64,000 bases of DNA from Bacteroidales bacterium (GCA_016936975.1 JAFGWU010000014.1:23529-87528); one strand, 5' to 3'. Counted from the stretch's first letter, positions 12,612-45,585 are shown. Numbers and translations are program-made. Notes: generated by a model from the letters alone, not told the origin.

Positions 12612-12663
12612 ATGCACAGCCTGACAGGTCTTTGAACAGGAGGTCATCCGGTTAAGGTTTCAG

Positions 12664-14025: not shown

Positions 14026-14057
14026 AGTTCTTTCAATTTTCTGAAGTTGTCCGGCAT

Positions 14058-18794: not shown

Positions 18795-18807
18795 TAACAA
18801 TCAGGAA

Positions 18808-20818: not shown

Positions 20819-21102
20819 ACAGCGGGCTGCATCGCCTTTTATCGTCTTTCATTGGTTGTTTGAGGTTTGACGACGGTGCAAGGTGCAGCAGCTTTGCCGG
20901 AGAAAGGAACGTACCGCCTCATGTCTGAGCAACCTGATAATCAAAAGTATTGAATACATAAGAAAATGGTTGCGAAGACAGAGGGGGTATTATAATCCGG
21001 AAATGAATGTATCATTTATTATAAATTGAAACCTTGCTTCCTCAAACCTTTTATTTTGAGACACCCCTGTCCGATGGAGCTATGCCTTAAAATTGTTACT
21101 GA

Positions 21103-21870: not shown

Positions 21871-21941
21871 CTGCAATCATTCAGGCGGGCAGACTGCTGT
21901 TGCATCGTACAGAAGGTCCGCAGCGGAACGGGATAAAATTT

Positions 21942-23314: not shown

Positions 23315-23319
23315 AAATA

Positions 23320-25426: not shown

Positions 25427-25429
25427 GGT

Positions 25430-26761: not shown

Positions 26762-26765
26762 GTGT

Positions 26766-27767: not shown

Positions 27768-27776
27768 ATCCGGGGA

Positions 27777-28928: not shown

Positions 28929-28935
28929 AGAGATT

Positions 28936-30939
28936 TTATGAATTAAAGGTTATTAAAAGTTTGTTGATTTCAACCTGTTCTCCTGCCGAAACATGTATTT
29001 CTTTTACTGTCGTATCCCGGGGAGAAACAATCTTGTTTTCCATTTTCATGGATTCGATAATTAGGAGGGTATCCCCTTTCATCACCTCATCACCGTTCTT
29101 CACATTGATCTGAACCACCTTCCCGTGGAGCGGTGCGGTGATCCTGCTTACATCAGTTTCTTCAGATGCCTTTCCGGTGCGGGAGAGATACCGGCTGTCG
29201 GGCATATCCAGTCTGCGAACCCTGAACAGCTGACCGTCAGGGTCCAGGTAAATATCCGACCGGTCGGTTACTCCCCAGACTTTTATCAACTGGTCATCCA
29301 TCCTGATCCAGTAGAGGTTTCCGACGGCCCGCTCCAGTGAAATATTCAGCAAACGGTCGTTCATCAGGAGTTCCATCCTTTCCCTGCCCTTTTTTAATTC
29401 ATATCCGATTCGATACTGTTTATGGTTGTGCTCCAGGATAATTTCGGGCGCCATGCGCCAGTGTCCGATCTGATGCCACGGGGATAGATCCGGCAGGTCA
29501 TCCCGGAAGGTGTTCCGGAGACTGATGAAGGCGGCGATGGAGAGGATCGTTTCGACGGACCAGAGGGTTCTGGCTCTTTCGATGCCGGAAAGGATCGTTT
29601 CCAGCTCGCTGTCGAGGTATTTTGTATGAATGGTGTTGCGGGAAAAATCGTCGGAACGGAGCAATTCAATAAGGAAATCCCGGTTGGTGGTCAATCCTGT
29701 TATCCTGTAGTCTTTCAGGGCTCTGATAAGGTGGTTCCTGGCATCGTCGCGATTACTTCCTGAAACAATCACCTTGGCAATCATCGGATCGTAGTAGGGC
29801 TCTACAAGGTTGCCTTGGGCATATCCCGAATCGATCCTCACCCAGCTGCGAACCGGTTCTTCAAGGAGGTCAATGCGTCCTGTTGAGGGCATGAATCCCT
29901 TCACGGGATCTTCAGCGTAAAGCCTTGCCTCAATGGCATGTCCCTTCCGGACAATATCCTCCTGCGAGAAAGAGAGCGGATAACCCTCTGCAATATTGAT
30001 CTGTTCCTTGACCAGGTCGATGCCGGTGACCATTTCCGTTACAGGATGCTCCACCTGTATGCGGGTATTCATCTCCAGGAAGAAAAATTCCTGGTTACCG
30101 TCGACCAGGAATTCAACGGTTCCTGCACCTGTATAGCTTATCTGGCGTACCAGCCTGATGGCACTTTCCGTGATCTTCTCCCGGGTTTCCCGGGCGAGGA
30201 AGGCCGACGGGGTTTCCTCAATGATTTTCTGGTACCGGCGCTGGAGGGAGCACTCCCTCTCATAGAGGTGAACTGCGTTGCCATGCTTGTCGGCGATCAC
30301 CTGTACTTCGATGTGCCTTGGTTTTTCAAGATACTTTTCAAGGTAGAGCTCCGGGGAACCGAAATAACTCAACGATTCACGGCCGGCCTCTTCAAGGGCG
30401 GGCCCAAGCTCTTCCGGGGAACGTACCACCCGCATCCCTTTTCCGCCACCTCCCCCGGAAGGCTTCACAAGGAGAGGGTAGGAGTAAGTTTCCTTATGGC
30501 TGAGCAGCGACTGGGAGGAACCATGATAACCCTGTAAAACAGGCACTCCCGATTTCTCCGCACTATTTCTTGCATTTGACTTATGCCCCATCAGGTCTAT
30601 AACATCCGGTGAAGGGCCGATAAATTCAATACCTGCATCGCGACAGGCCATTGCGAAGGCAGCGTTCTCTGAAAGAAACCCATAACCCGGGTGAATGGCA
30701 TCAACATGGGCGTCACGGGCAATCCTGATGATTTTTTCAATATTCAGGTAGGTATCCGACAGGGATCCTTCGCCAAGAGGGAAGGCCTCATCTGCCATGG
30801 TCACAAAGGGTAGGTCGCGGTCATAACGGGAATGAATCACTACAGCGAGTTTGTCGAGTTCCCTGATGGCGCGGATGATGCGTACCGCAATCTCGCCACG
30901 ATTGGCAATGAGTATCTTATGAAATTTTTTCCTATTCAA
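28936..30939 (-). CDS. liuD: Methylcrotonyl-CoA carboxylase alpha subunit (biotin carboxylase plus biotinyl domain)
   Basis: KILIANRGEIAVRIIRA, an ATP-grasp region and a C-terminal ESMKMEN biotinylation motif. There is no in-frame ATG near the conserved N-terminus. A TTG at 30939 overlapping the upstream stop is the plausible start; the track ORF runs to 31014. Confidence 0.85.
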   Translation of the reverse strand: MNRKKFHKILIANRGEIAVRIIRAIRELDKLAVVIHSRYDRDLPFVTMADEAFPLGEGSLSDTYLNIEKIIRIARDAHVDAIHPGYGFLSENAAFAMACRDAGIEFIGPSPDVIDLMGHKSNARNSAEKSGVPVLQGYHGSSQSLLSHKETYSYPLLVKPSGGGGGKGMRVVRSPEELGPALEEAGRESLSYFGSPELYLEKYLEKPRHIEVQVIADKHGNAVHLYERECSLQRRYQKIIEETPSAFLARETREKITESAIRLVRQISYTGAGTVEFLVDGNQEFFFLEMNTRIQVEHPVTEMVTGIDLVKEQINIAEGYPLSFSQEDIVRKGHAIEARLYAEDPVKGFMPSTGRIDLLEEPVRSWVRIDSGYAQGNLVEPYYDPMIAKVIVSGSNRDDARNHLIRALKDYRITGLTTNRDFLIELLRSDDFSRNTIHTKYLDSELETILSGIERARTLWSVETILSIAAFISLRNTFRDDLPDLSPWHQIGHWRMAPEIILEHNHKQYRIGYELKKGRERMELLMNDRLLNISLERAVGNLYWIRMDDQLIKVWGVTDRSDIYLDPDGQLFRVRRLDMPDSRYLSRTGKASEETDVSRITAPLHGKVVQINVKNGDEVMKGDTLLIIESMKMENKIVSPRDTTVKEIHVSAGEQVEINKLLITFNS

Positions 30940-31720
30940 TCCAGTTTGGTTTTCGTTTTTCCAGGAAGGCAAGCATCCCCTCCTGTCCTTCCGGTGAGGT
31001 GCGGAACCCGGCAATCAGCTGGGAGGTATCCTCCGGAAGATCTTTGTTGCCGGGATCTTTTTCGATGTACCGGATCAGTTCCTTGACCCCGGAGAGTGCG
31101 GAAGGGCCGCTTGTTTTCAAAATGGCAATCAATCTCTCGAGCGCCTGGTCCAGCCCGCCCGGCTTACAGAGCTGGTGGATGAGTCCGATCTCAAAAGCTT
31201 CAATAGCATCAAACCTGCGCCCGGTAAGCATCAGTTCCCGTGCCCTGCTGCTTCCTGTTTTCCTGATAATATGGGGCGCAATGGTTGCAGGAATCAGACC
31301 AAGCTTTACCTCAGAGAATGCAAAGGTGGCAGTGTCGTCGGCAAAGGCAATATCACAAGCCGCAATAATACCGTTGGCCCCGCCCATTACCTTTCCGTGA
31401 ACGGCACATACCGTAACCTTACTGCACTCATAAATGCGCGCAAAGAGACCAGAAAGCTCCATGCTTTCGGAGACCAGCTGGTCATGCGGTTGATTCAGGC
31501 CCGTCTTCATCCAGTTCAGATCCGCACCCGAACAGAAATGCTCCCCTTCCGACCGGATAATGATCATGCGGATTTCGGGATCCCTGTTAAATTCCTGGAT
31601 CACAGAGGATATTTCCCGAATCATTTCAAGGTTCAGGGCGTTGAAAACGGCAGGCCGATCCAGTATTATGGATGCGACCCGGTTCTTGACGGAGATCTTT
31701 ATGGTCTGGAAACGGTTCAT
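30932..31720 (-). CDS. liuC: Enoyl-CoA hydratase family (methylglutaconyl-CoA hydratase by context)
   Basis: Crotonase fold (ILDRPAVFNALN, FCSGADLNWM). The likely start is MNRFQT at 31720, directly after the upstream stop. Confidence 0.8.
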   Translation of the reverse strand: MNRFQTIKISVKNRVASIILDRPAVFNALNLEMIREISSVIQEFNRDPEIRMIIIRSEGEHFCSGADLNWMKTGLNQPHDQLVSESMELSGLFARIYECSKVTVCAVHGKVMGGANGIIAACDIAFADDTATFAFSEVKLGLIPATIAPHIIRKTGSSRARELMLTGRRFDAIEAFEIGLIHQLCKPGGLDQALERLIAILKTSGPSALSGVKELIRYIEKDPGNKDLPEDTSQLIAGFRTSPEGQEGMLAFLEKRKPNWIE

Positions 31721-31721
31721 T

Positions 31722-33329
31722 TTACATCCTGTATATACCCACCCGGGGTTCTTCAAATTTTTTATTCAGAGACATAGAAATGGCCAGGGCGATAATTCTT
31801 CTTGTATCCTTCGGATCGATTATTCCATCGTCCCATAACCTCGAGGTACTGTAATAGGCTGAGCCCTCTTTTTCGTATTTTTCGAGAATCGGTTTCCTGA
31901 TGGCCTTTCGCTCTTCATCGGAAAGTGTTTTTCCCTGTTCCCTTAACTGGTCTTCCTTGATGGTGGCAAGCACATCAGCTGCCTGCTCCCCCCCCATGAC
32001 ACTGATTTTTGCTTCCGGCCACATGAATAGCAATCTTGGTTCATAGGCCCGTCCCGACATGGCGTAATTGCCCGCCCCGAAAGAGCCCCCGAAAATAACG
32101 GTGAACCTTGGTACGCGGGTATTGGCTACGGCATGAACCATCTTTGCGCCGTCCTTGGCAATCCCCTCCTGTTCATAATCCTTCCCCACCATGAAACCAG
32201 CAATGTTCTGGAGAAACAGAATTGGAATTCCCCGGTGATTGCAAAGCTCAACAAAGTGGGTTCCCTTGAGGGAGGATTCACTGAAGAGGATGCCGTTATT
32301 GCCGATAATGCCGACCGGGAAGCCCATAATGCGCGCAAATCCCGTAACAAGGGTGGTCCCATAGTTCTGTTTAAATTCAGAGAATTCACTCCCGTCGACG
32401 ATCCGTGCAATTATTTCCCTCACATCCACCGGTTGCCGGAAACTTTCCGGCAGGATCCCGTAAAGCTCATCAGGATCATAAAGCGGGTCTTTTACAGGGG
32501 AACGATCCATACTCTGCCTTTGGGGAATCTGAATGGTTTCAAAAATATCCCGGCAGATTTGCAGTGCATGCTGGTCACTCTCCGCAAGATGGTCTGCAAC
32601 ACCCGATTTCGTTGTATGTACCAGGCCTCCTCCCAGCTCCTCCGCAGTGACCTCTTCACCGGTGGCCGCTTTAACAAGCGGTGGCCCCCCGAGGAAAATG
32701 GTTCCCTGATCCTTCACGATAATGGTCTCATCACTCATGGCCGGGACATAAGCCCCGCCGGCTGTGCATGAACCCATGACTATGGAGATCTGGGGAATAC
32801 CGGTGGCCGATAAGCGGGCCTGGTTGTAAAAAATCCTGCCGAAATCATCCCGGTCAGGAAATACATCAGCCTGGTTCGGAAGAAAGACACCACCCGAATC
32901 AACAAGGTAAATACAGGGTAATCCGTTTTGCATGGCTATCTCCTGGGCACGGAGATGCTTTTTGATTGTTTCCTCAATGTAGGTCCCACCTTTAACGGTC
33001 GCATCATTGGCCACAATCATGACTTCCTTTCCCTGAATAAGTCCGATACCTGTAACAATACCGGCCGAGGGGAACTGGTTGTCGTACTGACCGAAGGCGG
33101 CAAGGGATGAGAGCTCGAGAAATGGGGTGTTGGGATCGACCAGCATGTTTATGCGATCCCGCACGAGCAACTTACCTCTTCTGGTATGCTTTTCCCGCGC
33201 GCTCTCCGGCCCCCCCATGCTCACCTCCGAAAGTCGTTTCTTTAACAGGTTCACCGACGCTGTATAACGGTTCTTTCGTGACTTGAATTCTTCTGAAGAG
33301 GTATCGATTTTAGAAACCAAGGTTTTCAA
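31722..33329 (-). CDS. liuB: Methylcrotonyl-CoA carboxylase beta subunit (carboxyltransferase)
   Basis: [32 protein letters not shown] and [12 protein letters not shown] are typical of MCC beta / acyl-CoA carboxyltransferase. Confidence 0.88.
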
Positions 33330-33688: not shown

Positions 33689-35563
33689 ATGGTTCTCAAT
33701 CTTTCCAGGGCACTGAAGAAAAATACAGACCCGGCCGCCAGAATGCCTGGCCGGTCTGAAGAGGCGGTATCTTTAAACGATCGGGCATACCTGCCCGTTC
33801 CGCTTTATTCGGAGGAAACCGTTTTGCTTCCTGAAATGATTAAGATCAATCCCTACTTCACTCATTTCCTGACATCCGATGGATTGACATGGCTTATATC
33901 CCAGGATAATCCAATCATTCACGATCATATCGCCGGTTTAACAGACTGGTCGGTCAAATATCACACCAGCAGTTCCCTTAAAAAGATTAAAAGGGCCAGG
34001 ATGCAGACCGATATCAGGAGTTACATCAATTATCTGCGAAAGGTGGAATTTTCGGGGTCGGATAATCTGGTGGAGGTGGCGGGCTCGCCGGATAAAGAGT
34101 CTGTGATTGCGGCACTTGTTTCCGTTTCCAGGTCAGGGGACAGAAAACAGATACCTCTAATCATTGCACTTTTCAGGGATCCACATGTCGAAATTGCCAT
34201 GGCGGCTATTGAAACGGCTGAGATACTTAAGGCCGTGGAGGCTGCTCCCATTCTGGCAGAATATCTTGCCAATCCAAAGCTTTACAGCTATGCATGGTCC
34301 GCACTGGTCAATACAGGGGAGGAGGTTGTTGTTCATCTTGAAAAAGCCTTTCACAGACCAGAGCCAACGAATACGATGCTTATCAGGATCATCCGGGCCA
34401 TGACCGTCATTGGTGGAGACAGAATAAACAGGTCCCTGTTCAGGGGAATGGAGCTTCATCGCAGGGAGGTATTTTTCGAGGCTGCAAAAGCATTGTATAT
34501 TAATAATTTTGTCGTATCCGCGGAGGAGAAGCCTTTTTTGCTGAAACATATCGATGAACTGCTGGAGACGGGAGCCTGGAATCTGGTAGCAAGACAGATT
34601 ATTAGAAATGAAGGGAAACATGGCGGTTTGCTTGCCGCTGTTGAGGATGAAATAAGACACACCAATGAGTTGCTATTCATGCTTCTGGGTGTAACATACA
34701 GGAAGAGTTCCATAAGACAGATCAGGCACTCGCTGGAGAATCCCGGGAATCACGATACTGCTGATGCAGTGAAGTTACTGAAACTGATGGTCGATAAACC
34801 TCTGAGAGACCGGCTGGATTGTTATGTAAAAACCTTAACCGGCTCACTAAGGATTGGAAGGTTGAGGAATATGTTCCTGCTGGAGATGCCGGCCTACCAC
34901 AATCTTCTTAAGGCAATCGTGACAATGGATGGAATGCGGCTGGGTAACTACATCAGGATTTGTGCCATAGAAGAGCTTGGTCGGCTCCGGCGGGAAGAGG
35001 ATGAACCCACGATCACTGCTCAATTGTTCCATCCTCTCCCGGTCATCAGGGAATCGGCCCGGGTGGTGATGAAGGAAAAATACGGGAAGCGTTATAAAGA
35101 GATTGAGGAGCGGTTACATTCTGAACTCCCGCTTCAGGAGGAGATACTCCCTGGAAATAAACATTCCCATATTCATCCGGGATCAGCAAGAATGGAGGAT
35201 CTGAGGCACTGGAGACTTTTTGAAAGAGTGGACCTGAATGAGCTGTTGAAACTGGCATGGTCACTGGAGCCGTTTAAAAAAGAGCATATGGAGGATGACC
35301 GGTATGTTACCCTGCTCCGGTCGAACATGTCAGGGAACGGTTCGGTCTACAATTCCGGATTGGTTATCCATCCTGGTTATCATCAGGATTTGGGCGATCT
35401 GATTGTCCGGATAGCCTCAGAAGAGGGCGCTTCGGTTTACCAGGCAGGGATCGCAGGTCTGAAAGAGTTATTGTTTGACAATTCCGGTTTACTGAATTGT
35501 TTCCACGATCTGTTTGTGGGAACCAGGTTAAAAGATCTTAAATCTTCCCTGAAAAAGGATTGA
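33689..35563 (+). CDS. HEAT/armadillo-like repeat protein with a possible degenerate cyclic-nucleotide-binding-like C-terminus
   Basis: 624-aa all-helical repeat region (IPLIIALFRDPHVEIAMAAIETAEILKAVEAAPILAEYL). The C-terminal ~120 aa (LRHWRLFERVDLNELLKLAW...) are weakly cNMP-domain-like. There is no signal peptide or TM segment. Confidence 0.6.
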   Translation: MVLNLSRALKKNTDPAARMPGRSEEAVSLNDRAYLPVPLYSEETVLLPEMIKINPYFTHFLTSDGLTWLISQDNPIIHDHIAGLTDWSVKYHTSSSLKKIKRARMQTDIRSYINYLRKVEFSGSDNLVEVAGSPDKESVIAALVSVSRSGDRKQIPLIIALFRDPHVEIAMAAIETAEILKAVEAAPILAEYLANPKLYSYAWSALVNTGEEVVVHLEKAFHRPEPTNTMLIRIIRAMTVIGGDRINRSLFRGMELHRREVFFEAAKALYINNFVVSAEEKPFLLKHIDELLETGAWNLVARQIIRNEGKHGGLLAAVEDEIRHTNELLFMLLGVTYRKSSIRQIRHSLENPGNHDTADAVKLLKLMVDKPLRDRLDCYVKTLTGSLRIGRLRNMFLLEMPAYHNLLKAIVTMDGMRLGNYIRICAIEELGRLRREEDEPTITAQLFHPLPVIRESARVVMKEKYGKRYKEIEERLHSELPLQEEILPGNKHSHIHPGSARMEDLRHWRLFERVDLNELLKLAWSLEPFKKEHMEDDRYVTLLRSNMSGNGSVYNSGLVIHPGYHQDLGDLIVRIASEEGASVYQAGIAGLKELLFDNSGLLNCFHDLFVGTRLKDLKSSLKKD

Positions 35564-35782: not shown

Positions 35783-38700
35783 ATGACACCGAAAAACCCG
35801 TTTCCCGGATTACGACCCTTCACACTGGAAGAAGCCAATCTTTTTTTCGGTCGTGAAAAACAGGTCAGGGCAGTACTGAAACTGCTTAATTCCAATGGGA
35901 TCGTGTTCGTTACAGGCGTACCGGGAATCGGTAAGACATCTCTGGTCCAATGCGGAGTAGCTCAGGAGTTTTTGAAAACGGCGGGTGAATCGGCCAGAAT
36001 TATCAGCTTCTGCCCGGGGGTCGATCCGATAAGGAGCCTGGTGGATGCGTTTATGAAAAATTTCCCCGGCAAAATCGGGGCAATGGAGGATGTAGTATTG
36101 CTGAATGGGGATGTGACATTGGAATCCTGGCTTAAAGAACACGATCTTATGCATTTCAATTTTCTGCTGATCATCGATAAATTGGAGGAGATATTCAGGG
36201 ATGCTACATTACACGATACAAAGACCGGGGATAACCGGGTGAAAAGATTTGTTGATCTGATTTCCGGGGCAGTTCATGTGCCGGAGCATAAAATCCGGGT
36301 GGCAATTACAATACGGTCGGAAAGGATTGGAGAGTGTTCCGCCTGCAGTGAACTAACCGGTTTGCTCAACAGGAGCCATTATATGTTACCGGTGATGACC
36401 CGTGATAATTACAGGGAGGTCATTGAAGGTCCTTTAAAACAGGCCGGTGTTTCCATAGATGGGAATCTGCTCACACAATTACTGGATGAGACGGGAGAAT
36501 TTGTCAACCGGCTTCCCATGCTCCAGCATGCCATGATGCGGACATTTGATCACTGGAAGGTCCAGAATAAACCTTCAAAGCCATTGTCTGTTATAAATTA
36601 TGAGTCCACCGGAACGCTTCTCAAGGCAGTTTCCCAACATGCTGATGAGGCCTTTTCCGAACTGGGAGAGAAGCAAAAGGAAATCTGCCAGATCTTCTTT
36701 AAAACAATAACGGAAAAAAACGGGGTTGCTGAAGGAATCAGCAGGCCGGCCACTATCGGGAAGATTGCCGGTATTGCTCAATGTGCAACAGAAGAGGTTA
36801 TCGGGGTTGTAAATCATTTCAGGTCGGAGGGAAGAATCTTTTTAACCCCCTGTCATCCTCAGAAATTACTGCCTGCAAGTACAGTTGATCTTTCCCATGA
36901 GTTATTGATGCAATATTGGGATAAATTACGGTTATGGGTTGAGGAGGAGGCCTCATCGGTAGCGATGTACAGGAAACTGGTTAAAGCCTCCGCACTTTAT
37001 CAGGCCGGCCGGATCGGACTGCTGAGGCCGCCCGACCTCGATCTTGCCCTGAGGTGGAAAGAAGAACAAAAACCCCGGCTCGAATGGGCCGCTCAATACA
37101 ATCCGGCCTTTGAGCGGTCGATGCTTTATCTGAACCTGAGTCAGGAAGAATATTTAAAGGAGCAAAATAAAGCGGTCAGATTGCAGAAGAGGAAGTTAAG
37201 GATGCCGCTCATTATTACAGGTGTGGCAGGCATTATGGCAGTGACAGCAACCGGCTTGTTTTTCGGGACCAGGGAAGGATCCAGGCAGGTCGAGGTGGCT
37301 TCAAATGTGGGGGCACCCTCTTTGGAGACTCCGGAACCGGTCGGATTCGAAGCTGAAGTTTTTCCGGAAGATACTTTGCTGTCCACGGCAACAACTCTGG
37401 AAAACCGGGAGCCTGAACAAAGGGAAGAAGAACCTGATTCCCGGCAGGAATCCACTCTCCGGGAAAATATTGAACAGGAGAGAAGGGAGGTCAGGATTGC
37501 AAGGACGACCTCACAGGAAGCCCGCCGCCAGCAGCAGGTCGCTGCACAGAATGAACAGGCCGCGGTTGAGCAGATGGAACAGGCGGAGACGGAACGGCAG
37601 AGAGAATATCGTAACAGGCTCATCTCAAAAGCTAAATCCATTGCTGTGAGATCACTCCAGTTGAGCGACGATCCGGACCTGCAGGCATTGCTTGCTGTTC
37701 AGGCTTACCGGTTTAACTCGGAAAACGGGGGATACCGTTATGATGCCGACATATACCGGGGGCTGTACAACGCCCTTAAAAGCAAAATTTCAGACGGCTA
37801 TAATGTGTATAGCGGACATAACTACTCCGTCAGGTCCCTTGCGTGGTATAAGAGAAGAAATGGATTTCTGAGCGCCGACAGCCAGGGAAAAATTCTCTTC
37901 ATGTCCGGCGATTTTCGGAATAACAGGTCCAATTCGTTAATCGCCAATACCGGGCACGTCAATGAAGCAGTCGCAATCAGCCCTGATGAAACCCTTTTTG
38001 CCTGCGGGACAGATGGTGGGGGATTATATGTTTTTCAGATGTCGGACCCCTCGGAGAATTACAGCTTCAGGGAAGCCCACGGGGGGAAAGTGCAGATGCT
38101 TGCATTCTATGATAGCGGGAGGAGACTGGTTTCTGCCGGAGCTGATAACACAATCATGAAATGGAATCTCAACAGCCGGACGGGAGAGTTATTCGCTCAG
38201 CTAGAATCCAGGCCGACATCAATGGCTGTCTCAAATGCTTTAACGCACCTGGTCGTTGGAACAAGAGACGGAAAACTGGTGGAGTACCTTTTCGAAAATC
38301 CGGGTGATGGAAGGATTTTATACCATAACTCCGGAAATCCGGTCATGGCCGTAACATATAGTCCCAATGACAATCAGGTCGTCATTGGAACGCTGGATGG
38401 ATCGGTAAGGATAATCAACCGAAGCAATATATCTTCTGTGATAACCGTAAAGGGGCCGGAAGCACGGGTAACTGATCTGGCTTACAGTAATAACGGAAAA
38501 TTCCTGGCTGCTGCCTCGCATGATGGCAATGTTTACCTCTGGGAAACATCTGATTGGAACGAACAACCGGTAGTGGTGGGAGATAACCAGGGATTTGTAC
38601 TGACCCTCTGTTTCAGCGATGACAGCCGGCATTTCTACAGCGGAAGCACAAAAGCCCCATTGCTGATTGGAAGGCCCGTGGAATCTTCCCTGATGGTGAA

Positions 38701-38806
38701 CGGTTTCTGTGCATTGATAAACAGAAATCTGTCACGTGAGGAATGGAATATGTATATCGGAGATGATATTCCTTACGAAAAAACCTGTCCGGAAAAAGAG
38801 CCATAA
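35783..38806 (+). CDS. STAND-class NTPase (nSTAND-like) - single TM - E/Q/R-rich coiled coil - 7-bladed WD40 propeller
   Basis: N-terminus NPFPGLRPFTLEEANLFFGREKQV. Walker A GVPGIGKTS and Walker B LLIIDKLEE. TM segment MPLIITGVAGIMAVTATGLFFG preceded by KRKLR. Low-complexity EQR segment. Seven WD-like blades (for example HGGKVQMLAFYDSGRRLVSAGADNTIMKWNL and VTDLAYSNNGKFLAAASHDGNVYLWE). Confidence 0.85.
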   Translation: MTPKNPFPGLRPFTLEEANLFFGREKQVRAVLKLLNSNGIVFVTGVPGIGKTSLVQCGVAQEFLKTAGESARIISFCPGVDPIRSLVDAFMKNFPGKIGAMEDVVLLNGDVTLESWLKEHDLMHFNFLLIIDKLEEIFRDATLHDTKTGDNRVKRFVDLISGAVHVPEHKIRVAITIRSERIGECSACSELTGLLNRSHYMLPVMTRDNYREVIEGPLKQAGVSIDGNLLTQLLDETGEFVNRLPMLQHAMMRTFDHWKVQNKPSKPLSVINYESTGTLLKAVSQHADEAFSELGEKQKEICQIFFKTITEKNGVAEGISRPATIGKIAGIAQCATEEVIGVVNHFRSEGRIFLTPCHPQKLLPASTVDLSHELLMQYWDKLRLWVEEEASSVAMYRKLVKASALYQAGRIGLLRPPDLDLALRWKEEQKPRLEWAAQYNPAFERSMLYLNLSQEEYLKEQNKAVRLQKRKLRMPLIITGVAGIMAVTATGLFFGTREGSRQVEVASNVGAPSLETPEPVGFEAEVFPEDTLLSTATTLENREPEQREEEPDSRQESTLRENIEQERREVRIARTTSQEARRQQQVAAQNEQAAVEQMEQAETERQREYRNRLISKAKSIAVRSLQLSDDPDLQALLAVQAYRFNSENGGYRYDADIYRGLYNALKSKISDGYNVYSGHNYSVRSLAWYKRRNGFLSADSQGKILFMSGDFRNNRSNSLIANTGHVNEAVAISPDETLFACGTDGGGLYVFQMSDPSENYSFREAHGGKVQMLAFYDSGRRLVSAGADNTIMKWNLNSRTGELFAQLESRPTSMAVSNALTHLVVGTRDGKLVEYLFENPGDGRILYHNSGNPVMAVTYSPNDNQVVIGTLDGSVRIINRSNISSVITVKGPEARVTDLAYSNNGKFLAAASHDGNVYLWETSDWNEQPVVVGDNQGFVLTLCFSDDSRHFYSGSTKAPLLIGRPVESSLMVNGFCALINRNLSREEWNMYIGDDIPYEKTCPEKEP

Positions 38807-38820: not shown

Positions 38821-39861
38821 ATGATGAGGACCGGCCTGGTCATACTATTTTTTGTCATCGTTTATCCTTTCAACAATCTGATCGGGCAGGAAGAGTGTGA
38901 ACGCCTGTTAAGGATCGCCCGCGAACGATATGAAGCAGGTCGTGTTGAAGATGTTCCGGAACTTCTGAAAGATTGTCTCGCCTCCGGGTTAACCAGGGAA
39001 GACCAGATGGAGGCCTATAAGCTTATTATCAATTCCTATCTGTTTGATGGATTTTCCGAAAGAGCAGATTCGGTGATGTTATCCTTCCTGAATCGCTTCC
39101 CGGATTATAAACCTGCCGATGCTGATCCTGCAGAATTTCAGCAGCTGTTGGGTTCTTACCGGACCACTCCTGTTCTGTCGGTCGGTTGGTTATTTGGTGG
39201 AAACTTCTCCGTTCCCCAGCTCATCGAGGCTTACAGCACAGCTTCACCCCTGACGGACGACGGTACATTTAAATTTCCTGTTGCAGGCTTTCAGACAGCT
39301 CCTTTCTGCAATATCAGGATTGGAGAAAAGGCTGAAATGGGCTTTGAGTTGCGGTTCATGCAGAACCGTTTTAAGTATCGGACCCGGCCTTATACTTTTC
39401 TGGAGAATGAATACGTTGAACGACAAAACCGGCTGATAGTCCCGGTATCGTTTATTTACCGGATAGGCCCCGAGCAGAAAGCAGAACCTTATATCATCGC
39501 CGGAGCTGCCGCCGATTATCTTTTATCTGCCGCAGCCCATGCTTCGCGTTCCTACACAGAAACGGGGGATATGGTTTTTTCGGATGTGCTGCTCCCCCTT
39601 ACCGGGGTCACCGGGATGAGAAAAAGGTATAATGGATGGTTGTTCGCAGGAGGAGGCATCCGTCTGAACCTTCAACGTTCTTTCTGGTTTGCTGATCTTC
39701 GTTTCTGGGTTGGCTTGTCTTCAGCCAATAAGGGGGATGAACGTTATATCATACCCGATTTAAACTGGTTAATCTACTATGTGGATAACGATTTCAGAAT
39801 GAATTGTGTTACCTTTTCAATAGGCTACGCCCGGAATTTTTACAATCCCAAAAAGAGGTAA
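38821..39861 (+). CDS. Secreted protein with an N-terminal TPR-like hairpin plus a predicted outer-membrane beta-barrel
   Basis: Signal peptide, a helical segment (ERLLRIARERYEAGRVEDVPELLKDCL), then an alternating beta-strand-like region (VGWLFGGNFSV...) ending in aromatic-rich strands. It starts 14 nt after the STAND gene. Confidence 0.6.
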   Translation: MMRTGLVILFFVIVYPFNNLIGQEECERLLRIARERYEAGRVEDVPELLKDCLASGLTREDQMEAYKLIINSYLFDGFSERADSVMLSFLNRFPDYKPADADPAEFQQLLGSYRTTPVLSVGWLFGGNFSVPQLIEAYSTASPLTDDGTFKFPVAGFQTAPFCNIRIGEKAEMGFELRFMQNRFKYRTRPYTFLENEYVERQNRLIVPVSFIYRIGPEQKAEPYIIAGAAADYLLSAAAHASRSYTETGDMVFSDVLLPLTGVTGMRKRYNGWLFAGGGIRLNLQRSFWFADLRFWVGLSSANKGDERYIIPDLNWLIYYVDNDFRMNCVTFSIGYARNFYNPKKR

Positions 39862-39866
39862 ACGTG

Positions 39867-41057
39867 ATGAGGAATTCCGTCGGGATATATATGGCTGCGA
39901 TGTTCTTCCTGTTCTCCTGTGAAGTTGGGATCTCGGAAGAACAATCGGATACATTCATCAAGTTCTACGGGAATTACCTTCTTGATTCAGGTTCCGATGT
40001 AGTCAAAACTGATGAGGGGGGGTATGCGGTTGCAGGCACGACCTCTATTCCCGATTCTGTCACGGCAATGGTATTGATGAAAACCGATGAATACGGCAAC
40101 CTTCTGAGAAGATTTCCAAGGTATTATACTGACGGAAGGGATTGCGGGACCAGATACCTGCTGAAACTGGATGACGGGTTTCTTTTATGCGGCTACGTAA
40201 TGGCCGACGGGATCGGCGGCAGATTTCAGGAAGATATTTGCCTTATCAGGACCACCATTGATGGTTCCGTTGTCTGGCGCAAAACTTTTGGTGGCAACGG
40301 AGACGAAAATGTCAATCATGTCGTGGAAGGAAATTCGGACGGGTTTGTCATTGCAGGCTACAGGGAGCTGGACAATGAAAAAGACTACTGGATATTTTCC
40401 ATCAGCGGGGATGGGGATTTTATAAGGGAGGTGCCGCCGCAGCCAATCCCGGATAACAGCGATGATATGGCCAATTGCCTGGTGAATGTTCAGGGTATGG
40501 GATATCTCTGTGCCTGCACTTATAATGATGATACCCATAAAGGGACCAACGTTCTGATGCTTGCAATCAACAATGATTTAAATACACCCTATAACATTTC
40601 CCTGGGAACGGATGGCAATGATTATGGAAAGGCCCTTATTAAAGGTGAAACGAATACCTATTATGTTCTGGGAAATACCCGGAATGAATCATCGGGGAAG
40701 ATGGAAATATTTGTTTACAGCCTGGAGATGGACGGATTAAGATTTATAAATTTTTCTGAGTTTGCAACGATCCGGTCGGATTCAGAGGACTTAACAGGAG
40801 AAAGGTTCGTTATGACAGCCCCTGGTAGTTTTGCCATCATCGGGTCGTCCGGCTATGACAATAATTATGATATTCTATTGCAATTTGTTGAACAGGGGAT
40901 ACCATCCGGACGATTCTATTTCGGGGAAACCGGTAACCAGACCGGTGCTGGCATTCTCGTTTCAGATGATGGGGGCCTGGTTTTTGTAGGAACAAATACC
41001 TATGAGGGAAATAGCATGATTTCGCTTGTGAAAACCAACATTAATGGTGAACTTTAG
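39867..41057 (+). CDS. Lipoprotein with repeated beta-propeller-like modules
   Basis: Start MRNSVGIY at 39867 and lipobox FLFSC. A recurring motif occurs about every 45-55 aa (GGYAVAGTT, DGFLLCGYV, DGFVIAGYR, YYVLGNTRN, FAIIGSSG, GLVFVGTN). Confidence 0.65.
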   Translation: MRNSVGIYMAAMFFLFSCEVGISEEQSDTFIKFYGNYLLDSGSDVVKTDEGGYAVAGTTSIPDSVTAMVLMKTDEYGNLLRRFPRYYTDGRDCGTRYLLKLDDGFLLCGYVMADGIGGRFQEDICLIRTTIDGSVVWRKTFGGNGDENVNHVVEGNSDGFVIAGYRELDNEKDYWIFSISGDGDFIREVPPQPIPDNSDDMANCLVNVQGMGYLCACTYNDDTHKGTNVLMLAINNDLNTPYNISLGTDGNDYGKALIKGETNTYYVLGNTRNESSGKMEIFVYSLEMDGLRFINFSEFATIRSDSEDLTGERFVMTAPGSFAIIGSSGYDNNYDILLQFVEQGIPSGRFYFGETGNQTGAGILVSDDGGLVFVGTNTYEGNSMISLVKTNINGEL

Positions 41058-41082
41058 TAACGATGTCCGGAACCTGTTTGAA

Positions 41083-44000
41083 ATGAAGAGGAAAACACTA
41101 ATCCTGCTCCTTACGCTTCTTATATGCAGTTCACCATTCCTGAACGGGCAGACAGAACCCTATGCGATCCTGTCCAGGGGTTCACTGGGCGACCTGACGG
41201 AAAGAAACCTTGACGGGAGTCTGTTTTATGTGAAACTGCACGGGGAGCAGTTCTCAGACGCTACACTGTTCGCCGGGAATTTCAGCCTCACAACCTCAAT
41301 TCAAAATCTTTCGGTGAGCGAAGTTTTTTACAGGGGAGCCGATACCTGTATCTGCAGGTTGGTATATCCTGAAGGGGCTGATTTTGACGAGATTCAATCC
41401 ATTTCATTAACCATCGATGCATCCGAACTGGTGGGAAGCCAGGATGTGTCGAGTGCGAATACCCTCCCGGTGACTCCGCTGATTGAACCGGTCATAACAA
41501 ATGTTACGATTGCTGACCATCCTTATAAAATCGGGGATCAGGTCTATTGCACCATCACTGTTGAGACTGATTCAGAAGAGGATTATACCTATGACGGGGG
41601 AACCGTCGCCGGTCGTTCCCTTCAGGGATTCACCCGTACCGGGACTGTAGTCTATCAGGCCTATGTTACTGTCGAAGAGGGAGGACCGGCTTATGCCGCA
41701 GGGGAGGATATTCCTGTCAGTAACCTGCGGCTTTTCAATCCCGACGGATTTGTCTATGGTGAATTTTATAATGCCTTGATCTCTCAGCCAAACGATGTGA
41801 TCGATTCGGACCGGCCGGTTGTAAATTCCGCCGTTGTTAACGGGGGGACCTATCGTGTTGGACAGACTCTTTCCCTGGCAGTGACTGCCGACCAGTCAGA
41901 TTATGTTTTTGATCCCGTGCTGACCACCACCAATGGGATCCCTTTGACCGAATCCCGGGTATATGAAGGAATCGTCTCCGGTAATCAATATTACCTGAAT
42001 TATACAGTGGCAGAAGGAGATGATGATCTTCTGTCCGGACCGTTGCCGGTTGAAATCGTTATGATTGACCCGGTCGGAAATGCAAACATCAATCCCTTTA
42101 CTGCTGTTTCCGGTATCAATCCATTAATTGATGCCAACAGTCCACAATTGCTTTCTGCTGAAATTGTTGATCCGGATGTATGCATTATCGGGGACACCGT
42201 TCAAATGCTGCTTGATTTTAGTGAAGGCGGAATCTCGGCAAGGTCAGGAACACATGTAAACCAGATCCCCCTTGGAACACAGGTGAAATTTCAACCGGTT
42301 TCGGGCACACGGTACAGTTTAATTTATATAGTTTATGAAGGGGATCAGCAGGTTAATCCCGGTGAGCTCACTTATAATGTGGTTGTACAGGATCCTTTGG
42401 GCAATGAGTCATCTTCCGCCATCACTCCGTTAAACAATACGGTTTCGGTTTATGCAACCAGGCCTACGGCTGTGATTTCAGGCGAAGGAGAAATTTGCAG
42501 GGGTAGTTCCCATAAAATATCCGCAACATTTACCGGCGACGGGCCATGGGATGTAACTATTGAGGGAGACCAGGGATTCAACCAGTCCTTTTTCAATATT
42601 ACAAGCCCTTTCACGCTCTTTGTCAAGCCAACGGTTACAGAAACGTATGCCGTTACGGGTCTGTTTGATAAACATGGTAATTCCGGAACCGGCTATGGGT
42701 CCGTAGTGGTTAAGGTAAACCTGCCAACGCCGGTAACCATTCTCAATACACAGCTGGTCTATCTGAGGGATGCCGAGCCGGTTCAACTGCTTGGAGATCC
42801 TGAAGGAGGTGTTTTCTCAGGCGAAGGGGTTGAATCTTCAACAGGGATTTTTTATCCCGGGCTCGTGGATACATCAACCAATCAAACCACCATTATGTAT
42901 TTATATGTGAATGAATACGGTTGTTCAAGCAGTGCCACAAAGCAATTCACAGTGATTGATCAGGGTTATGCAATCTCCGGGTTGCCAGGTGTGGTGTGTG
43001 AGAATGATGATCCCTTTGAGGTTTCTGCTTTTAATGAATCGGGAAATCCGGGGATTTTCCGTTTACTGAAGGATGGAACGGATGTGTCATCTTCCGGATT
43101 AGCCGATCCGGATCCTGGGGATGATACGGTGATCATTATCCCGGGAGCCCTGGAAAGGGGATTTTATGATCTCGAGTACAGTTTTGAGTTCAATGAAGAA
43201 CGATACAGTTATCTTACACCCTTCTTTCTCGACCGGGTAGCGCATTTTGCGGTACTGAGTCCTGATTCAGTCTGTGCCAATGCCGGGCCAATCGAATTAA
43301 TTGTTACTCCAAACAGCGATTTCAATACGATTAACACGCATGTTTATACCGGTCAAGGTGTCAGCGGGAATCTGTCAACCGGTTATTTTTTCGATCCGGA
43401 GGAGGCGGATTCAGGAACCAATATGATCAATTACCAAATTACCTCCTCGGAAGGATGTGTAAAAGATACCAGCTTCATGATTGTAAAGCTGGATGTGCCT
43501 TTGCCTGATTTTGATGTAAGCACGGTTTGCATCCCTTCGGAGGGAGGGGAGGTATCCATGATAAACCTGACAAATAAACAGGAGCTGGTGAAGGAGTGGC
43601 TCTGGAATTTCGGAGATATCAACAGCGGTACACAAAATACCAGCACTCTGTTTGAACCGGTCCATCGTTATACTGCATCCGGAAACCGGACCATTCAGCT
43701 CAGGATCGGCACCACGGAAGGATGTATGGCCATCCTTCAGAAAACCATTGAATTTGCAGACAAACCCGTATCTGATTTCACATGGGTATCTGATTGTTAC
43801 AGTGAAACCCGGGGGATTGAGTTTGTAAATAAGTCCTCCAGTGACTCCCCCTGGTTACGTCACATCTGGACGATTTTTGAAAACTCGGGGAAGCCGGTCA
43901 ATACGATAACCCTGTCGGGTCCCACAAATATGGTTTATCAGTTTAGTAAAGTGGATGATTATCGGGTCCGCCTGGTTTGCGAAAATGTAAAGGGATGTAC

Positions 44001-45585
44001 AGACACCCTTGAGCGTTTGGTGGCTTTGAAACCCACCTTGATCTTAAATACCGATAATAGTTATTATGAAACGTTTGATCAATCGAATGGCCGTTGGGAT
44101 AGCCGGGCAGACAGCCTGAGCATATCCAGCTGGACCTACGGAGAACCCGATTTCGACGGTTTTGAATCGATGCCCGGCAATTTTGCATGGTTCACGGATC
44201 TTCCTGAGATTAAAACCGCTGAATCATCATGGGTTCAGAGTCCCTGCTTTGATATGACCGGCATGGAAAAACCGTTAATAAGACTCGACATTATGAAGAG
44301 TTTTAATGCCCGTTATGACGGAGCTGTTCTTCAATATACGCTGGATAATGGAAAAACGTGGCAGAACGTTGGAAGTGTGGATGACGGTATACAATGGTAT
44401 AATGCATCGGATATCATCAGCGCTCCCGGAGGCAGCAGCACCGGGTGGAGCGGAACAACTACGTTTAATCCTGATACCCGCTGGATTCAAGGTTCCCATG
44501 ATCTTAACGATCTCATAAACAGAAAAAATGCCGTATTCAGAATTGCCTATGCTTCGGATGGCAGCCCGGGGGAAGATAATCATGGCTTTGCCTTTGATAA
44601 TTTCTTTATCGGTGAGAGGACCCGTATGACGGTACTTGAATATTTTACCAACAGCAGCAGTTCTGCCTCACTGAGTGCAGACCGGATAGCCGATCAATTC
44701 ATTACCGGTATTGACAGTCTGGATGTGATCACGCTCCAGTATCACACAGCTTATCCGGGAGAGGACCCGATGAACCTGAACAATCCTTACCCGGCATCAG
44801 GCAGATCATTCTATTATGGAATTACCGAGGTGCCCTTTGCTGTTCTGAACGGGGGTACAAGGCAGGATCTTCAGTTTGATTTTGAGGCGGAAATTCCCCA
44901 ATCGATGGATGTAAGAATGATCGCCCTTGAATTACCAAAATTTGATATTCAAATCGAGGTGACCTTGAATGATGGAAACATGGATATGAATATCCGGTTA
45001 ACGGCACTGGATGATTATCCGGAGGATGAACTTTTACTGCATACCGTTATTGCAGAGCGCCTGGTAACTGGGTATAAGGGAAATAACGGGGATGATGAAT
45101 TCAGGAATGTGGTTCTTGAGATGCTGCCTGATCCTGCCGGTAAACTGATTCAAAAAGAGTGGTACCAGGGAGAATCATATATCCAGCCTTATTCATGGAC
45201 TATGGAACATTATGAGGATCAGGAAGAACTTATCGTGATCTCCTTTCTTCAGGAACGTCAGACCGGGGAGATCCTTCAGGCAGCAAAATGGGATGTTTTT
45301 TCAGCCACCGGAGTCACTACCCGGGACTGGAACGTGCGTGAACTCAGTATTTTCCCAAATCCGGTTTCCGATATATTGTTTGTTCTGACAGGTGAAAGGA
45401 ATAGTCAGGACCCGCTTCTGACCATTCTTGATCTGACCGGACGAAGGATAATGATCAGTCAGCCGGGACCCGGTAACAGCCCGGTTGAACTGCCGGTCAA
45501 CAATCTGCAAAAAGGGATTTATTTATTGAATTATTCTGAAAACGGATTGCTGAAGGGCCGGTGCAAATTCATCAAGATTGAGTGA
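41083..45585 (+). CDS. Giant (~1,500 aa) T9SS-secreted adhesin-like protein with Ig-like repeats, a PKD-like domain and a jelly-roll (MAM/LamG-like) domain
   Basis: Signal peptide MKRKTLILLLTLLICSSPFLNGQ. Repeated Ig-like modules end in YxxxYxVxEGD...DPxGN. PKD-like WNFGD...HRYTASGNRTIQL. The C-terminal LSIFPNPVSDILFV...GIYLLNYSENGLLKGRCKFIKIE matches the T9SS CTD pattern. Confidence 0.85.
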   Translation: MKRKTLILLLTLLICSSPFLNGQTEPYAILSRGSLGDLTERNLDGSLFYVKLHGEQFSDATLFAGNFSLTTSIQNLSVSEVFYRGADTCICRLVYPEGADFDEIQSISLTIDASELVGSQDVSSANTLPVTPLIEPVITNVTIADHPYKIGDQVYCTITVETDSEEDYTYDGGTVAGRSLQGFTRTGTVVYQAYVTVEEGGPAYAAGEDIPVSNLRLFNPDGFVYGEFYNALISQPNDVIDSDRPVVNSAVVNGGTYRVGQTLSLAVTADQSDYVFDPVLTTTNGIPLTESRVYEGIVSGNQYYLNYTVAEGDDDLLSGPLPVEIVMIDPVGNANINPFTAVSGINPLIDANSPQLLSAEIVDPDVCIIGDTVQMLLDFSEGGISARSGTHVNQIPLGTQVKFQPVSGTRYSLIYIVYEGDQQVNPGELTYNVVVQDPLGNESSSAITPLNNTVSVYATRPTAVISGEGEICRGSSHKISATFTGDGPWDVTIEGDQGFNQSFFNITSPFTLFVKPTVTETYAVTGLFDKHGNSGTGYGSVVVKVNLPTPVTILNTQLVYLRDAEPVQLLGDPEGGVFSGEGVESSTGIFYPGLVDTSTNQTTIMYLYVNEYGCSSSATKQFTVIDQGYAISGLPGVVCENDDPFEVSAFNESGNPGIFRLLKDGTDVSSSGLADPDPGDDTVIIIPGALERGFYDLEYSFEFNEERYSYLTPFFLDRVAHFAVLSPDSVCANAGPIELIVTPNSDFNTINTHVYTGQGVSGNLSTGYFFDPEEADSGTNMINYQITSSEGCVKDTSFMIVKLDVPLPDFDVSTVCIPSEGGEVSMINLTNKQELVKEWLWNFGDINSGTQNTSTLFEPVHRYTASGNRTIQLRIGTTEGCMAILQKTIEFADKPVSDFTWVSDCYSETRGIEFVNKSSSDSPWLRHIWTIFENSGKPVNTITLSGPTNMVYQFSKVDDYRVRLVCENVKGCTDTLERLVALKPTLILNTDNSYYETFDQSNGRWDSRADSLSISSWTYGEPDFDGFESMPGNFAWFTDLPEIKTAESSWVQSPCFDMTGMEKPLIRLDIMKSFNARYDGAVLQYTLDNGKTWQNVGSVDDGIQWYNASDIISAPGGSSTGWSGTTTFNPDTRWIQGSHDLNDLINRKNAVFRIAYASDGSPGEDNHGFAFDNFFIGERTRMTVLEYFTNSSSSASLSADRIADQFITGIDSLDVITLQYHTAYPGEDPMNLNNPYPASGRSFYYGITEVPFAVLNGGTRQDLQFDFEAEIPQSMDVRMIALELPKFDIQIEVTLNDGNMDMNIRLTALDDYPEDELLLHTVIAERLVTGYKGNNGDDEFRNVVLEMLPDPAGKLIQKEWYQGESYIQPYSWTMEHYEDQEELIVISFLQERQTGEILQAAKWDVFSATGVTTRDWNVRELSIFPNPVSDILFVLTGERNSQDPLLTILDLTGRRIMISQPGPGNSPVELPVNNLQKGIYLLNYSENGLLKGRCKFIKIE

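Follow-up and report, generated by a model that had tools for sequence, protein, structure and literature searches.

An nSTAND1 NTPase with a predicted membrane helix and extracytoplasmic WD40 propeller in a conserved operon of Bacteroidota

This text concerns one gene of a Bacteroidales bacterium, found at 35783-38806 on the forward strand of a 64,000-nucleotide stretch of DNA (GCA_016936975.1 JAFGWU010000014.1:23529-87528), here called the window. The gene encodes a STAND protein that is a bona fide member of the nSTAND1 family of NTPases. Judged from the sequence, it is most likely an ATP switch resembling nucleotide-binding leucine-rich-repeat receptors (NLRs), anchored in the inner membrane and with its WD40 propeller in the periplasm. 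It is strongly supported that the gene is the second of a five-gene, same-strand operon, which runs HEAT-repeat protein, STAND protein, outer-membrane beta-barrel, propeller lipoprotein and giant protein of the type IX secretion system (T9SS). The mechanism we infer is that of a vertically inherited trans-envelope STAND switch or tether, joining an outer-membrane surface module to a cytoplasmic HEAT partner; this could equally well turn out right or wrong. We have high confidence in the anatomy but little in which way the signal runs and what it consists of.

In plants, animals, fungi and bacteria alike, STAND and NLR proteins are the textbook example of a receptor inside the cell. In the accepted model of activation, the repeats stay folded onto the NTPase as long as no ligand is bound, and this needs sensor and switch in one compartment. 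If the arrangement described here is true, sensor and switch lie on opposite sides of a membrane in a very large bacterial clade, and the signal has to pass through a single helix, a mechanism of activation unlike the accepted one. Bacteria would then also be using oligomerising switches of the NLR type to sense events outside the cytoplasm.

The gene and the parts of its protein are as follows.

35783..38806, + strand: whole gene, nSTAND1 NTPase, transmembrane helix, linker and WD40 propeller; ATG start, 1007 residues plus stop codon
35798..37006, + strand: nSTAND1 NTPase module (nucleotide-binding oligomerisation domain, NOD); residues 6-408, Pfam PF20703
37007..37201, + strand: juxtamembrane helical 'arm', predicted cytoplasmic; residues 409-473, with basic end QKRKLR
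37202..37270, + strand: single predicted transmembrane helix (signal-anchor, N-in/C-out); residues 474-496
37271..37660, + strand: linker or stalk, predicted to lie in the periplasm; residues 497-626, 130 residues
37673..37786, + strand: pre-propeller helical pair; residues 631-668, with AlphaFold2 helices at 631-647 and 655-668
37829..38677, + strand: seven-bladed WD40 beta-propeller; residues 683-965
38678..38803, + strand: C-terminal cap; residues 966-1007, motif FCxxxxRNxSxEEWxxYxGxDIPYExTC

No Pfam matches were found in overlapping or antisense open reading frames inside 35783-38806.

An earlier note on this DNA, made from the sequence alone, had read the protein as starting directly with an nSTAND-type motif, with no effector in front, and as carrying Walker A and B motifs. 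Both readings hold. The comparison with nSTAND profiles that the note had proposed places the protein far above the cut-off: PF20703 matches residues 6-408 with E=1.1e-73 and 249.5 bits, where the cut-off is 27.1, and positions 1-373 of the 379 in the profile are covered. The N-terminal motif, NPFPGLRPFTLEEANLFFGRE, occupies residues 5-25 and follows the pattern PFPGLRPF..FFGRE within the nSTAND1 module. Across 195 orthologues this motif starts at residue 2-28, and no domain precedes it.

The Walker A motif is GVPGIGKTS (residues 44-52), and Walker B is LLIIDKLEE (residues 128-136). Residues G45, G48, G50, K51, D132, E135 and E136 are invariant in 115 orthologues and present here. The same is true of R178, P217 and the winged-helix His249, while G216 is nearly invariant. 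The protein has the P-loop motifs and, by its sequence, the STAND-type helical and winged-helix extension with the conserved His that define membership.

An AlphaFold2 model, built on the 115 orthologues, has a mean predicted local distance difference test score (pLDDT) of 86.7. In it the NTPase module is compact, with pLDDT mostly above 85. When the full-length model is searched with Foldseek, full-length Apaf-1 (3shf, 3sfz) aligns over about 1056 columns. The search is dominated by matches to G-beta WD40 structures and leaves the NTPase module without a precise placement. When residues 1-473 were compared to the sequences of the PDB, only P-loop noise came back, and no relative. Neither NB-ARC nor NACHT is among the best 25 of the 44 Pfam families matched at E<=0.01. 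The protein is a member of nSTAND1 and not of NB-ARC or NACHT, and its resemblance to Apaf-1 is at the level of the fold only.

A PADLOC scan of the protein gave no assignment to Avs, bNACHT or any other defence system. The matches it did give are weak or irrelevant, such as HEAT-ARM_XIII on the WD40 region, and mad8 at E=5e-5. Scans of the protein and its neighbours with PADLOC and NCBIfam gave no useful assignment.

The placement of the WD40 domain depends on the membrane helix. The earlier note had described one such helix, preceded by KRKLR, and indeed the only hydrophobic segment of the protein is LIITGVAGIMAVTATGLFF (residues 476-494), which follows QKRKLR. Its Kyte-Doolittle 19-mer mean is 2.06. 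There are 6 lysines or arginines in the 15 residues before this segment and 2 after it. In the AlphaFold2 model, helix 443-499 runs through the segment without a break.

A hydrophobic helix sits at the same place in all of the about 200 orthologues examined, made up of 120 homologues and all full-length loci of an 84-locus set. The Kyte-Doolittle mean of the 19-23-residue segment is 2.0-3.3 across these. Lysines and arginines number 4-8 in the 15 residues upstream, against 0-5 downstream. On the additive Hessa scale the free energy of membrane insertion (dG) has a family median of -2.1 kcal/mol, and is below 0 in 98%.

An ATP-dependent NTPase without a signal peptide is cytoplasmic, and with one membrane pass this means that everything past residue 496 would be outside. 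Given that the helix and the positive-inside bias are kept in every orthologue, the WD40 domain should lie outside the cytoplasm if the ATPase lies within it. The earlier note's topology, a cytoplasmic NTPase and an extracytoplasmic WD40 domain by the positive-inside rule, is in this way supported in all orthologues examined. The case for it consists of hydrophobicity, positive-inside bias, covariation of a Cys pair in the cap, and exported operon partners. The O-glycosylation sequon of Bacteroidota, D[ST][AILMTV], is neither enriched nor conserved in the presumed periplasmic half (0.28 versus 0.24 per 100 residues). Its frequency is below what composition predicts, which makes it uninformative on topology rather than contrary.

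The arm in front of the membrane helix is the best-conserved part of the protein. Its mean pairwise identity is 0.73, while the NOD module reaches 0.56 and the propeller 0.34. This is to be expected if the arm couples the membrane helix to the switch.

Past the membrane helix, most orthologues have a near-invariant Ala every 7 residues over some 110 residues, which indicates an extended helical stalk. The composition of this stalk is like that of TolA domain II. The earlier note had described a coiled coil of about 110 residues in the window protein. This stands for residues 553-626, which AlphaFold2 models as one long helix, and fails for residues 496-553, a Pro-rich and acidic linker that is predicted to be disordered (pLDDT<50). 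At 0.15 nm per residue, the helical stalk would be about 11 nm long here and about 17 nm in typical orthologues. The closest relative (P0002) shares this feature with the window protein: in both, the first half of the stalk, in the columns of residues 497-611, is swapped for an acidic, Pro-containing disordered segment.

The helical pair ahead of the propeller has a family identity of 0.54. Its motif, ..DPDLQALLAVQAYRFN..DADIYRGLYNALK, is common to Streptomyces nSTAND1-WD40 proteins, and the Streptomyces counterpart reads SRQLAAQSGALLDSEPDLAALLAVHAYRTS. The seven blades that the earlier note had counted in the propeller are borne out. Pfam WD40 and propeller models match residues 672-961. AlphaFold2 places 27 strands between 683 and 965, which make up 7 blades, with pLDDT >90. 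Foldseek finds the 7-bladed WD40 domain of Thermomonospora PkwA (5yzv) with a template modelling score of 0.90 and E ~1e-18, and matches G-beta as well. The propeller is under ordinary purifying selection, and shows none of the hypervariability reported for some sensor repeats.

The cap carries a pair of cysteines, Cys976 and Cys1002. Of 188 unique orthologues, 170 keep the whole pair, 17 lack it entirely and 1 has a single Cys. On a tree from the NTPase region, these states need at least 5 independent changes. The pair is a candidate disulfide, and being kept or lost jointly is the pattern that one would be expected to show.

The other four genes of the operon are these.

33689..35563, + strand: HEAT-repeat partner protein, 624 residues, soluble; Pfam HEAT_2 E=2e-9
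38821..39861, + strand: outer-membrane beta-barrel protein (OMP), 346 residues; Pfam OMP_b-brl_2 E=1.6e-7, signal peptide
39867..41057, + strand: lipoprotein, 396 residues from MRNSVGIYMAAMFFLFSC, beta-propeller of DUF5122/CylK type; lipobox
41044..45585, + strand: giant T9SS cargo, up to 1513 residues, PKD domain and type-A C-terminal sorting domain

The genes are packed closely. The OMP starts 15 nt past the STAND stop codon, the lipoprotein starts 6 nt past the OMP stop, and the gaps between the downstream genes are 6-26 nt overall. The likely true start of the giant cargo is the Met of MKRKTLILLL, at about 41083. All genes downstream of the STAND gene carry export signals, namely a signal peptide, a lipobox and a T9SS C-terminal domain.

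In the OMP, the N-terminal periplasmic domain is helical (TPR-like) and contains a C-x25-C pair, which is kept in at least 61 of 68 cases. OMP_b-brl_2 matches its orthologue in locus L003 with E=1.6e-15. Both cysteines of this pair are lost in loci L063, L068 and L070, which parallels the behaviour of the Cys pair in the STAND tail. The lipobox is present in at least 39 of 47 lipoprotein orthologues, and the family profile matches the CylK propeller (7fh8_A) with E=8e-33. The giant cargo matches Pfam Por_Secre_tail (E=3.5e-9), PKD_4 and TIGR04183, and its orthologue in locus L004 contains SprB repeats.

Upstream, no transmembrane segment was found in the HEAT protein of the window. It aligns to residues 556-916 of the 1077-residue partner in L003 (E=3e-28). 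It corresponds to the cytoplasmic C-terminal part of larger fusions, in which a transporter of the nucleotide transporter (NTT) or major facilitator superfamily (MFS) type is joined to HEAT repeats and sometimes to a domain that binds cyclic nucleotides (cNBD); the transporter part has been lost. A word-indexed homologue search with this protein returned only itself. Within the window it is the sole cytoplasmic candidate for an output. The flanking genes of the STAND gene in the window were found to hold no effector-type domain, be it DUF4062, TIR, caspase or another.

A search with residues 1-670 yields more than 2000 relatives. Nearly all of the best 120 of these are 1000-1040 residues long, with 39-52% identity and 98-100% query cover, and they come from metagenome-assembled genomes of Bacteroidales and Marinilabiliales. 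In a scan of one genome per species, at least 585 genomes had a relative; 80 loci were kept, nearly all of them full-length. Most of these are labelled Bacteroidales or Cytophagales, and the cultured Fulvivirga kasyanovii, Chryseosolibacter histidini and Chryseotalea sanaruensis are among them.

Neighbours were counted with tblastn over 84 loci, where the denominators are the loci with enough flank, and where the counts for lipoprotein and cargo are limited by sensitivity. A HEAT protein lies upstream on the same strand in 62 of 64 loci, and the OMP directly downstream in 68 of 79. The lipoprotein follows downstream in 51 of 69, and the T9SS cargo is present in 26 of 38. Some loci have more: a DUF4062-containing protein between HEAT and STAND (36 of 71), and a HAMP-SpoIIE (PP2C) phosphatase (21 of 64). 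The worry of the earlier note, that homologues might routinely occur without any conserved neighbours, is laid to rest by the HEAT and OMP counts.

Four contigs from three homologues have the same gene order, with Vut_1 on one side; in three of the four, an ODP-flavodoxin gene is on the other side of the operon. The GC content of the operon is like that of its flanks, without anomaly. With its order and flanks syntenic, the locus looks vertically inherited across Bacteroidales and Cytophagales. It is unlike a mobile conflict island, and a patchy distribution in variable context is not what is found.

A plasmid of Persicobacter psychrovividus, a cultured member of the Cytophagales (pPP2, NZ_AP025294.1, 1-25419; locus L089), has a HEAT gene at 8804-11950 and a STAND gene at 11962-15003, with no OMP or lipoprotein gene downstream. 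This pair lies inside a cluster for an extracellular contractile injection system, with sheath, tube, baseplate V, PAAR, gp25, tape measure, DUF4255 and LysM genes.

The HEAT partner is usually larger than in the window, at 1000-1130 residues in 50 of 57 loci. It then consists of an MFS/TLC-like domain of 12 transmembrane segments and HEAT repeats, sometimes with a domain that binds cyclic nucleotide monophosphates (cNMP). Among 20 such partners, Pfam finds HEAT_2 in 19, MFS_1 in 7, cNMP_binding in 4 and TLC in 1. This is the architecture of the NTT-HEAT(-cNBD) fusions, which are described as uncharacterised but widespread in the parts of Major, Embley and Williams 2017 (PMC5381601) consulted, where no link to a STAND NTPase is mentioned. 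The window copy differs, as a soluble 624-residue HEAT protein without the transporter part.

The DUF4062-like partners are about 430-500 residues long. They are found for example at 8602-9993 of L003 and 8523-9968 of L064, and in 35 further loci. In 32 of 37 they conserve S-x-x-[D/E]-x-Q with the Gln, as judged from motif conservation. The canonical DUF4062 motif is S-x-T-E-x-E. The sequences suggest that these partners may be inactive or altered NADase-like domains. DUF4062 domains have been described as TIR-like NADases in phage defence, and human NWD1 and TEP1 have the order DUF4062, NACHT, WD40 (PMC13174449).

One relative (P0267, 1880 residues) has the DUF4062-like partner domain (residues 164-437, E=3e-18) fused ahead of its nSTAND1 module (499-968). 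Such a fusion supports a functional, Rosetta-stone link between the two, and its domain order matches that of human NWD1 and TEP1. P0267 has no transmembrane helix after its NTPase module. In L064 there is a weak TIR_2 match N-terminal to the DUF4062 region.

The earlier note implied that the arrangement is exceptional, and here it was mistaken. Of 14 distant nSTAND1 proteins examined, from five phyla, 13 have one hydrophobic helix some 370-480 residues past Walker A, and a run of Arg or Lys precedes it, for example RRRRRR before VTVVGG or RGRRRFR before LVLAAV. Behind the helix lies a linker that is helical, and WD40, pentapeptide or binding-protein-like domains come after it. The single member without the helix is an FGE-type protein. 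With residues 1-473 as query, an exhaustive phmmer search gave 32,606 cluster representatives at E<=1e-3, of which 3,869 reach E<=1e-30. In 123 of the best 125 representatives that are long enough, a transmembrane helix is in the same place, and many of these are effector-less. The helix between NTPase and repeats is therefore a general property of nSTAND1 and not peculiar to the window protein.

Other parts are also shared over long distances. Streptomyces proteins have the pre-propeller motif SRQLAAQS..DPDLAALLAVHAY in common with the window protein. The C-terminal C...C cap is also present in transmembrane-containing relatives from Streptomyces and Nostoc, an example from Streptomyces being LCDTVGDPMTRQQWKLYLPDRPYQPPC. 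The distant relatives sampled have a fused helix-turn-helix (HTH) or caspase domain, or an adjacent TIR or CHAT gene. When the NTPase module was compared to plasmids with tblastn, 122 records matched, mostly from Streptomyces and Nostocales, and also from Caballeronia, Hymenobacter and Chlorohelix; the 14 distant proteins described above were drawn from these.

This leads to a wider proposal, which is tentative and somewhat more likely to be wrong than right. It holds that nSTAND1 as a whole, some 20,000-30,000 cluster representatives, consists of transmembrane NLR-like receptors with their repeat sensors turned to the periplasm or the cell exterior. The effector-less Bacteroidota lineage would then have been domesticated into a core, vertically inherited trans-envelope device, coupling an outer-membrane and surface-adhesin module to a cytoplasmic NTT-HEAT nucleotide-transporter partner.

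Several close relatives by NTPase (about 38% identity), among them P0258, P0248, P0252, P0244 and P0227, are giants of 2000-4026 residues with an effector-less N-terminus. Their transmembrane helix is near residue 510, and several WD40 propellers together with TPRs come after it. The reasoning on topology given above would place as many as some 3500 residues of such a protein outside the cytoplasm. On a plasmid of Caballeronia sp. SBC2 (pSBC2-4, 3323-8537; L085), a TIR gene lies directly upstream of a gene for an nSTAND1 NTPase, transmembrane helix and WD40 domain, with a DUF4231 gene before it. Here a proteobacterium has a split-effector arrangement that parallels the pairing of DUF4062-like and STAND genes in Bacteroidota.

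A sketch of how the window protein might work can start from what is observed: the family it belongs to, switch motifs that are intact, a membrane helix conserved along with its positive-inside bias, operon partners that are exported, and a conserved gene order. The linker would hold the WD40 platform far from the inner membrane and near the outer one. There the propeller could contact the periplasmic N-terminal domain of the OMP, the propeller of the lipoprotein, a surface protein in transit, or several of these. A change in this contact would be relayed via stalk, transmembrane helix and arm to the NTPase module. The module would then swap ADP for ATP and oligomerise on the inner face of the membrane. 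The oligomer would engage the HEAT-repeat partner, which in most relatives is fused to an NTT/MFS-type transporter. Other lineages may add further outputs, in the form of the DUF4062 TIR-like protein or the HAMP-PP2C phosphatase. With a membrane between WD40 domain and NTPase, autoinhibition by fold-back in the style of Apaf-1 cannot apply.

Three observations weigh against this sketch. No member of the family has a less hydrophobic transmembrane helix than the window protein, where dG is -0.15 kcal/mol. Half of its stalk is disordered, unlike the Ala-heptad helix of its relatives. Finally, 11 loci (about 14%) are without the outer-membrane module, which means that a link to the outer membrane cannot be the universal function. 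Locus L052 has just HEAT and STAND, between topoisomerase IV plus shikimate kinase on the one hand and iPGM on the other; topoisomerase IV and shikimate kinase are also found upstream of the full operon in L003. Loci of this type make HEAT plus STAND the universal core. The near-zero dG of the window segment could be taken to mean that the helix does not span the membrane at all, and for instance lies buried as an oligomerisation helix or serves as a monotopic anchor. In that case the WD40 domain would be cytoplasmic, like that of Apaf-1 or Avs. The continuous AlphaFold2 helix does not by itself prove insertion, and WD40 domains of this canonical type are best known from cytoplasmic proteins. 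Such a non-spanning helix is nevertheless very improbable, as its hydrophobicity is conserved in about 200 orthologues, with the Lys/Arg cluster always on the N-terminal side only. The same helix recurs in nearly all of the distant and nearest family members surveyed, the covarying Cys pair is confined to the distal domain, and the operon partners downstream all carry export signals.

The remaining two explanations accept the topology and differ on what it is for. The protein could be an abortive-infection or programmed-death sensor, whose periplasmic WD40 domain detects an invader molecule or envelope damage, and whose toxic effector acts in trans. The trigger might be phage adsorption or injection at the giant surface protein, and the effector a DUF4062/TIR-like NADase or the transporter-HEAT protein. 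The family background speaks for this: nSTAND1 was defined in systems that counter invaders and have caspase, TIR and effector-associated domain (EAD) effectors (PMC8195603), and the fusions and adjacent genes of the distant relatives are of this kind. So does the DUF4062 protein, which is directly upstream of STAND in 36 of 71 loci and fused in P0267, and whose domain type acts as a TIR-like NADase in phage defence (PMC13174449). The window itself has no DUF4062, TIR, caspase or other death effector, however, and PADLOC models assign no Avs, bNACHT or other defence system. Unlike patchy defence islands, the locus is syntenic, nearly always full-length, without GC anomaly and in the same housekeeping flanks across orders. 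In addition, 32 of the 37 DUF4062-like partners carry Gln for one acidic position of the SxxExE-type motif. On balance a death sensor is unlikely. The signal could also run the other way, in an ATP-gated scaffold or tether that works inside-out and is no sensor. In that case the NTPase would control the oligomerisation of a stalk and propeller that anchor the OMP, the lipoprotein and the T9SS adhesin, like a TolA/TonB connector in which a nucleotide switch replaces the proton-motive force. The design is TolA-like indeed: the anchor is N-in, the long helix is rich in Ala, Glu, Gln and Arg and has Ala heptads, and the C-terminal domain is globular. A tether would also fit the tight operon coupling with outer-membrane and cell-surface proteins, including the SprB-repeat cargo of L004, the absence of a fused effector, and a propeller under ordinary purifying selection with no sign of hypervariability. 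Against it, STAND NTPases switch slowly and are not known to generate force, about 14% of loci keep STAND and HEAT without the outer-membrane module, and there is no homology to TolA, TonB, ExbD or TolR. An inside-out tether of this kind is improbable.

The trans-envelope switch or tether proposed above can be compared to a number of known systems. The nSTAND1 clade (PF20703) was named by Kaur, Burroughs, Iyer and Aravind in 2021 (PMC8195603). The window protein shares with it the PFPGLRPF..FFGRE motif, Walker A and B, the winged-helix His, and a high-scoring match over the full length of the model. With the members in Streptomyces, Nostoc and Caballeronia it also shares the transmembrane helix, the pre-propeller 'DPDL..LLA.QA' helices, the WD40 domain and the C...C tail. 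It differs from the nSTAND1 conflict systems of Kaur et al. 2021 in having no fused or adjacent effector and no effector-associated domain, and in sitting in a vertically inherited operon rather than a variable conflict locus.

STAND-WD40 proteins of the Apaf-1, NWD1 and TEP1 type have the same order, with an NTPase module followed by WD40, and full-length Apaf-1 aligns structurally. In NWD1 and TEP1 a DUF4062 domain precedes the NACHT domain (PMC13174449), and some of the orthologous operons here pair STAND with a DUF4062 protein. These proteins are soluble and cytoplasmic, however, and their WD40 domain folds back on the NTPase, whereas here a membrane is predicted to lie between the two. 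Their NTPase is of the NB-ARC or NACHT type, and that of the window protein is nSTAND1. Avs/AVAST and bNACHT systems have the same combination of STAND NTPase and C-terminal sensor repeats, and the same logic of an oligomerising switch. The window protein differs in that it has no PADLOC match and no N-terminal effector, in that its sensor is predicted to be extracytoplasmic, and in its syntenic locus.

Single-pass N-in/C-out transducers that cross the envelope are familiar from FecR/RseA-type anti-sigma factors, from PknD-type kinases with their extracytoplasmic beta-propeller, and from TolA/TonB. By analogy, the design may be the same: a cytoplasmic part, one transmembrane helix, a periplasmic linker, and a globular C-terminus that meets partners in the outer membrane. 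There is no homology of sequence or domain, and the cytoplasmic part of the window protein is a STAND NTPase of 470 residues. The STAND protein has no Pfam or NCBIfam match to TolA/TonB, and no gene for an ExbBD/TolQR motor was found among the four operon partners scanned.

Some elements have been touched upon before. One system with transmembrane helices followed by an extracellular binding-protein domain is found in Kaur et al. 2020, and cytoplasmic or periplasmic positions have been predicted for individual targets of diversity-generating retroelements (DGRs) by Doré et al. 2024. The topology of nSTAND1-WD40 proteins is not discussed in Kaur et al. 2020, Kaur et al. 2021 (PMC8195603), Hu et al. 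2017, Asplund-Samuelsson et al. 2012 or Doré et al. 2024, which together are a partial coverage of the literature. What appears to be new is the evidence, from sequence, that points to an extracytoplasmic placement of the repeats across the clade. New as well is a Bacteroidota lineage that has no effector and is a fixed member of a conserved operon, next to an OMP, a lipoprotein with a propeller, a giant T9SS protein and an NTT-HEAT partner.

No functional characterisation was found of the NTT-HEAT family, the OMP and lipoprotein pair, or the giant T9SS protein. The Bacteroidota operon unites these as one testable unit. Relatives of the operon occur in culturable hosts: Fulvivirga kasyanovii, Chryseosolibacter histidini, Chryseotalea sanaruensis and Persicobacter.

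The rest of the window is of a different nature. Adjoining the operon upstream, on the reverse strand at 28936-33329, are a biotin carboxylase with a biotinyl domain and a carboxyl transferase, an acyl-CoA carboxylase pair. This upstream flank is different in L001-L004 and L052, where it is Vut_1, or topoisomerase IV and shikimate kinase. Further away, also on the reverse strand (22391-26791), is a row of mevalonate-pathway genes: HMG-CoA reductase, a diphosphomevalonate decarboxylase-like gene and a GHMP kinase. Two upstream open reading frames, at 15696-20712, were considered as the missing NTT-HEAT and SpoIIE genes and rejected, as they are SusC/SusD. They are part of a cluster at 9279-20712 that resembles those for polysaccharide utilisation, with a GH106 alpha-L-rhamnosidase, a GH88 protein and the SusC-like/SusD-like pair. 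The same cluster holds a protein with weak propeller-repeat and oligogalacturonate-lyase-like matches.

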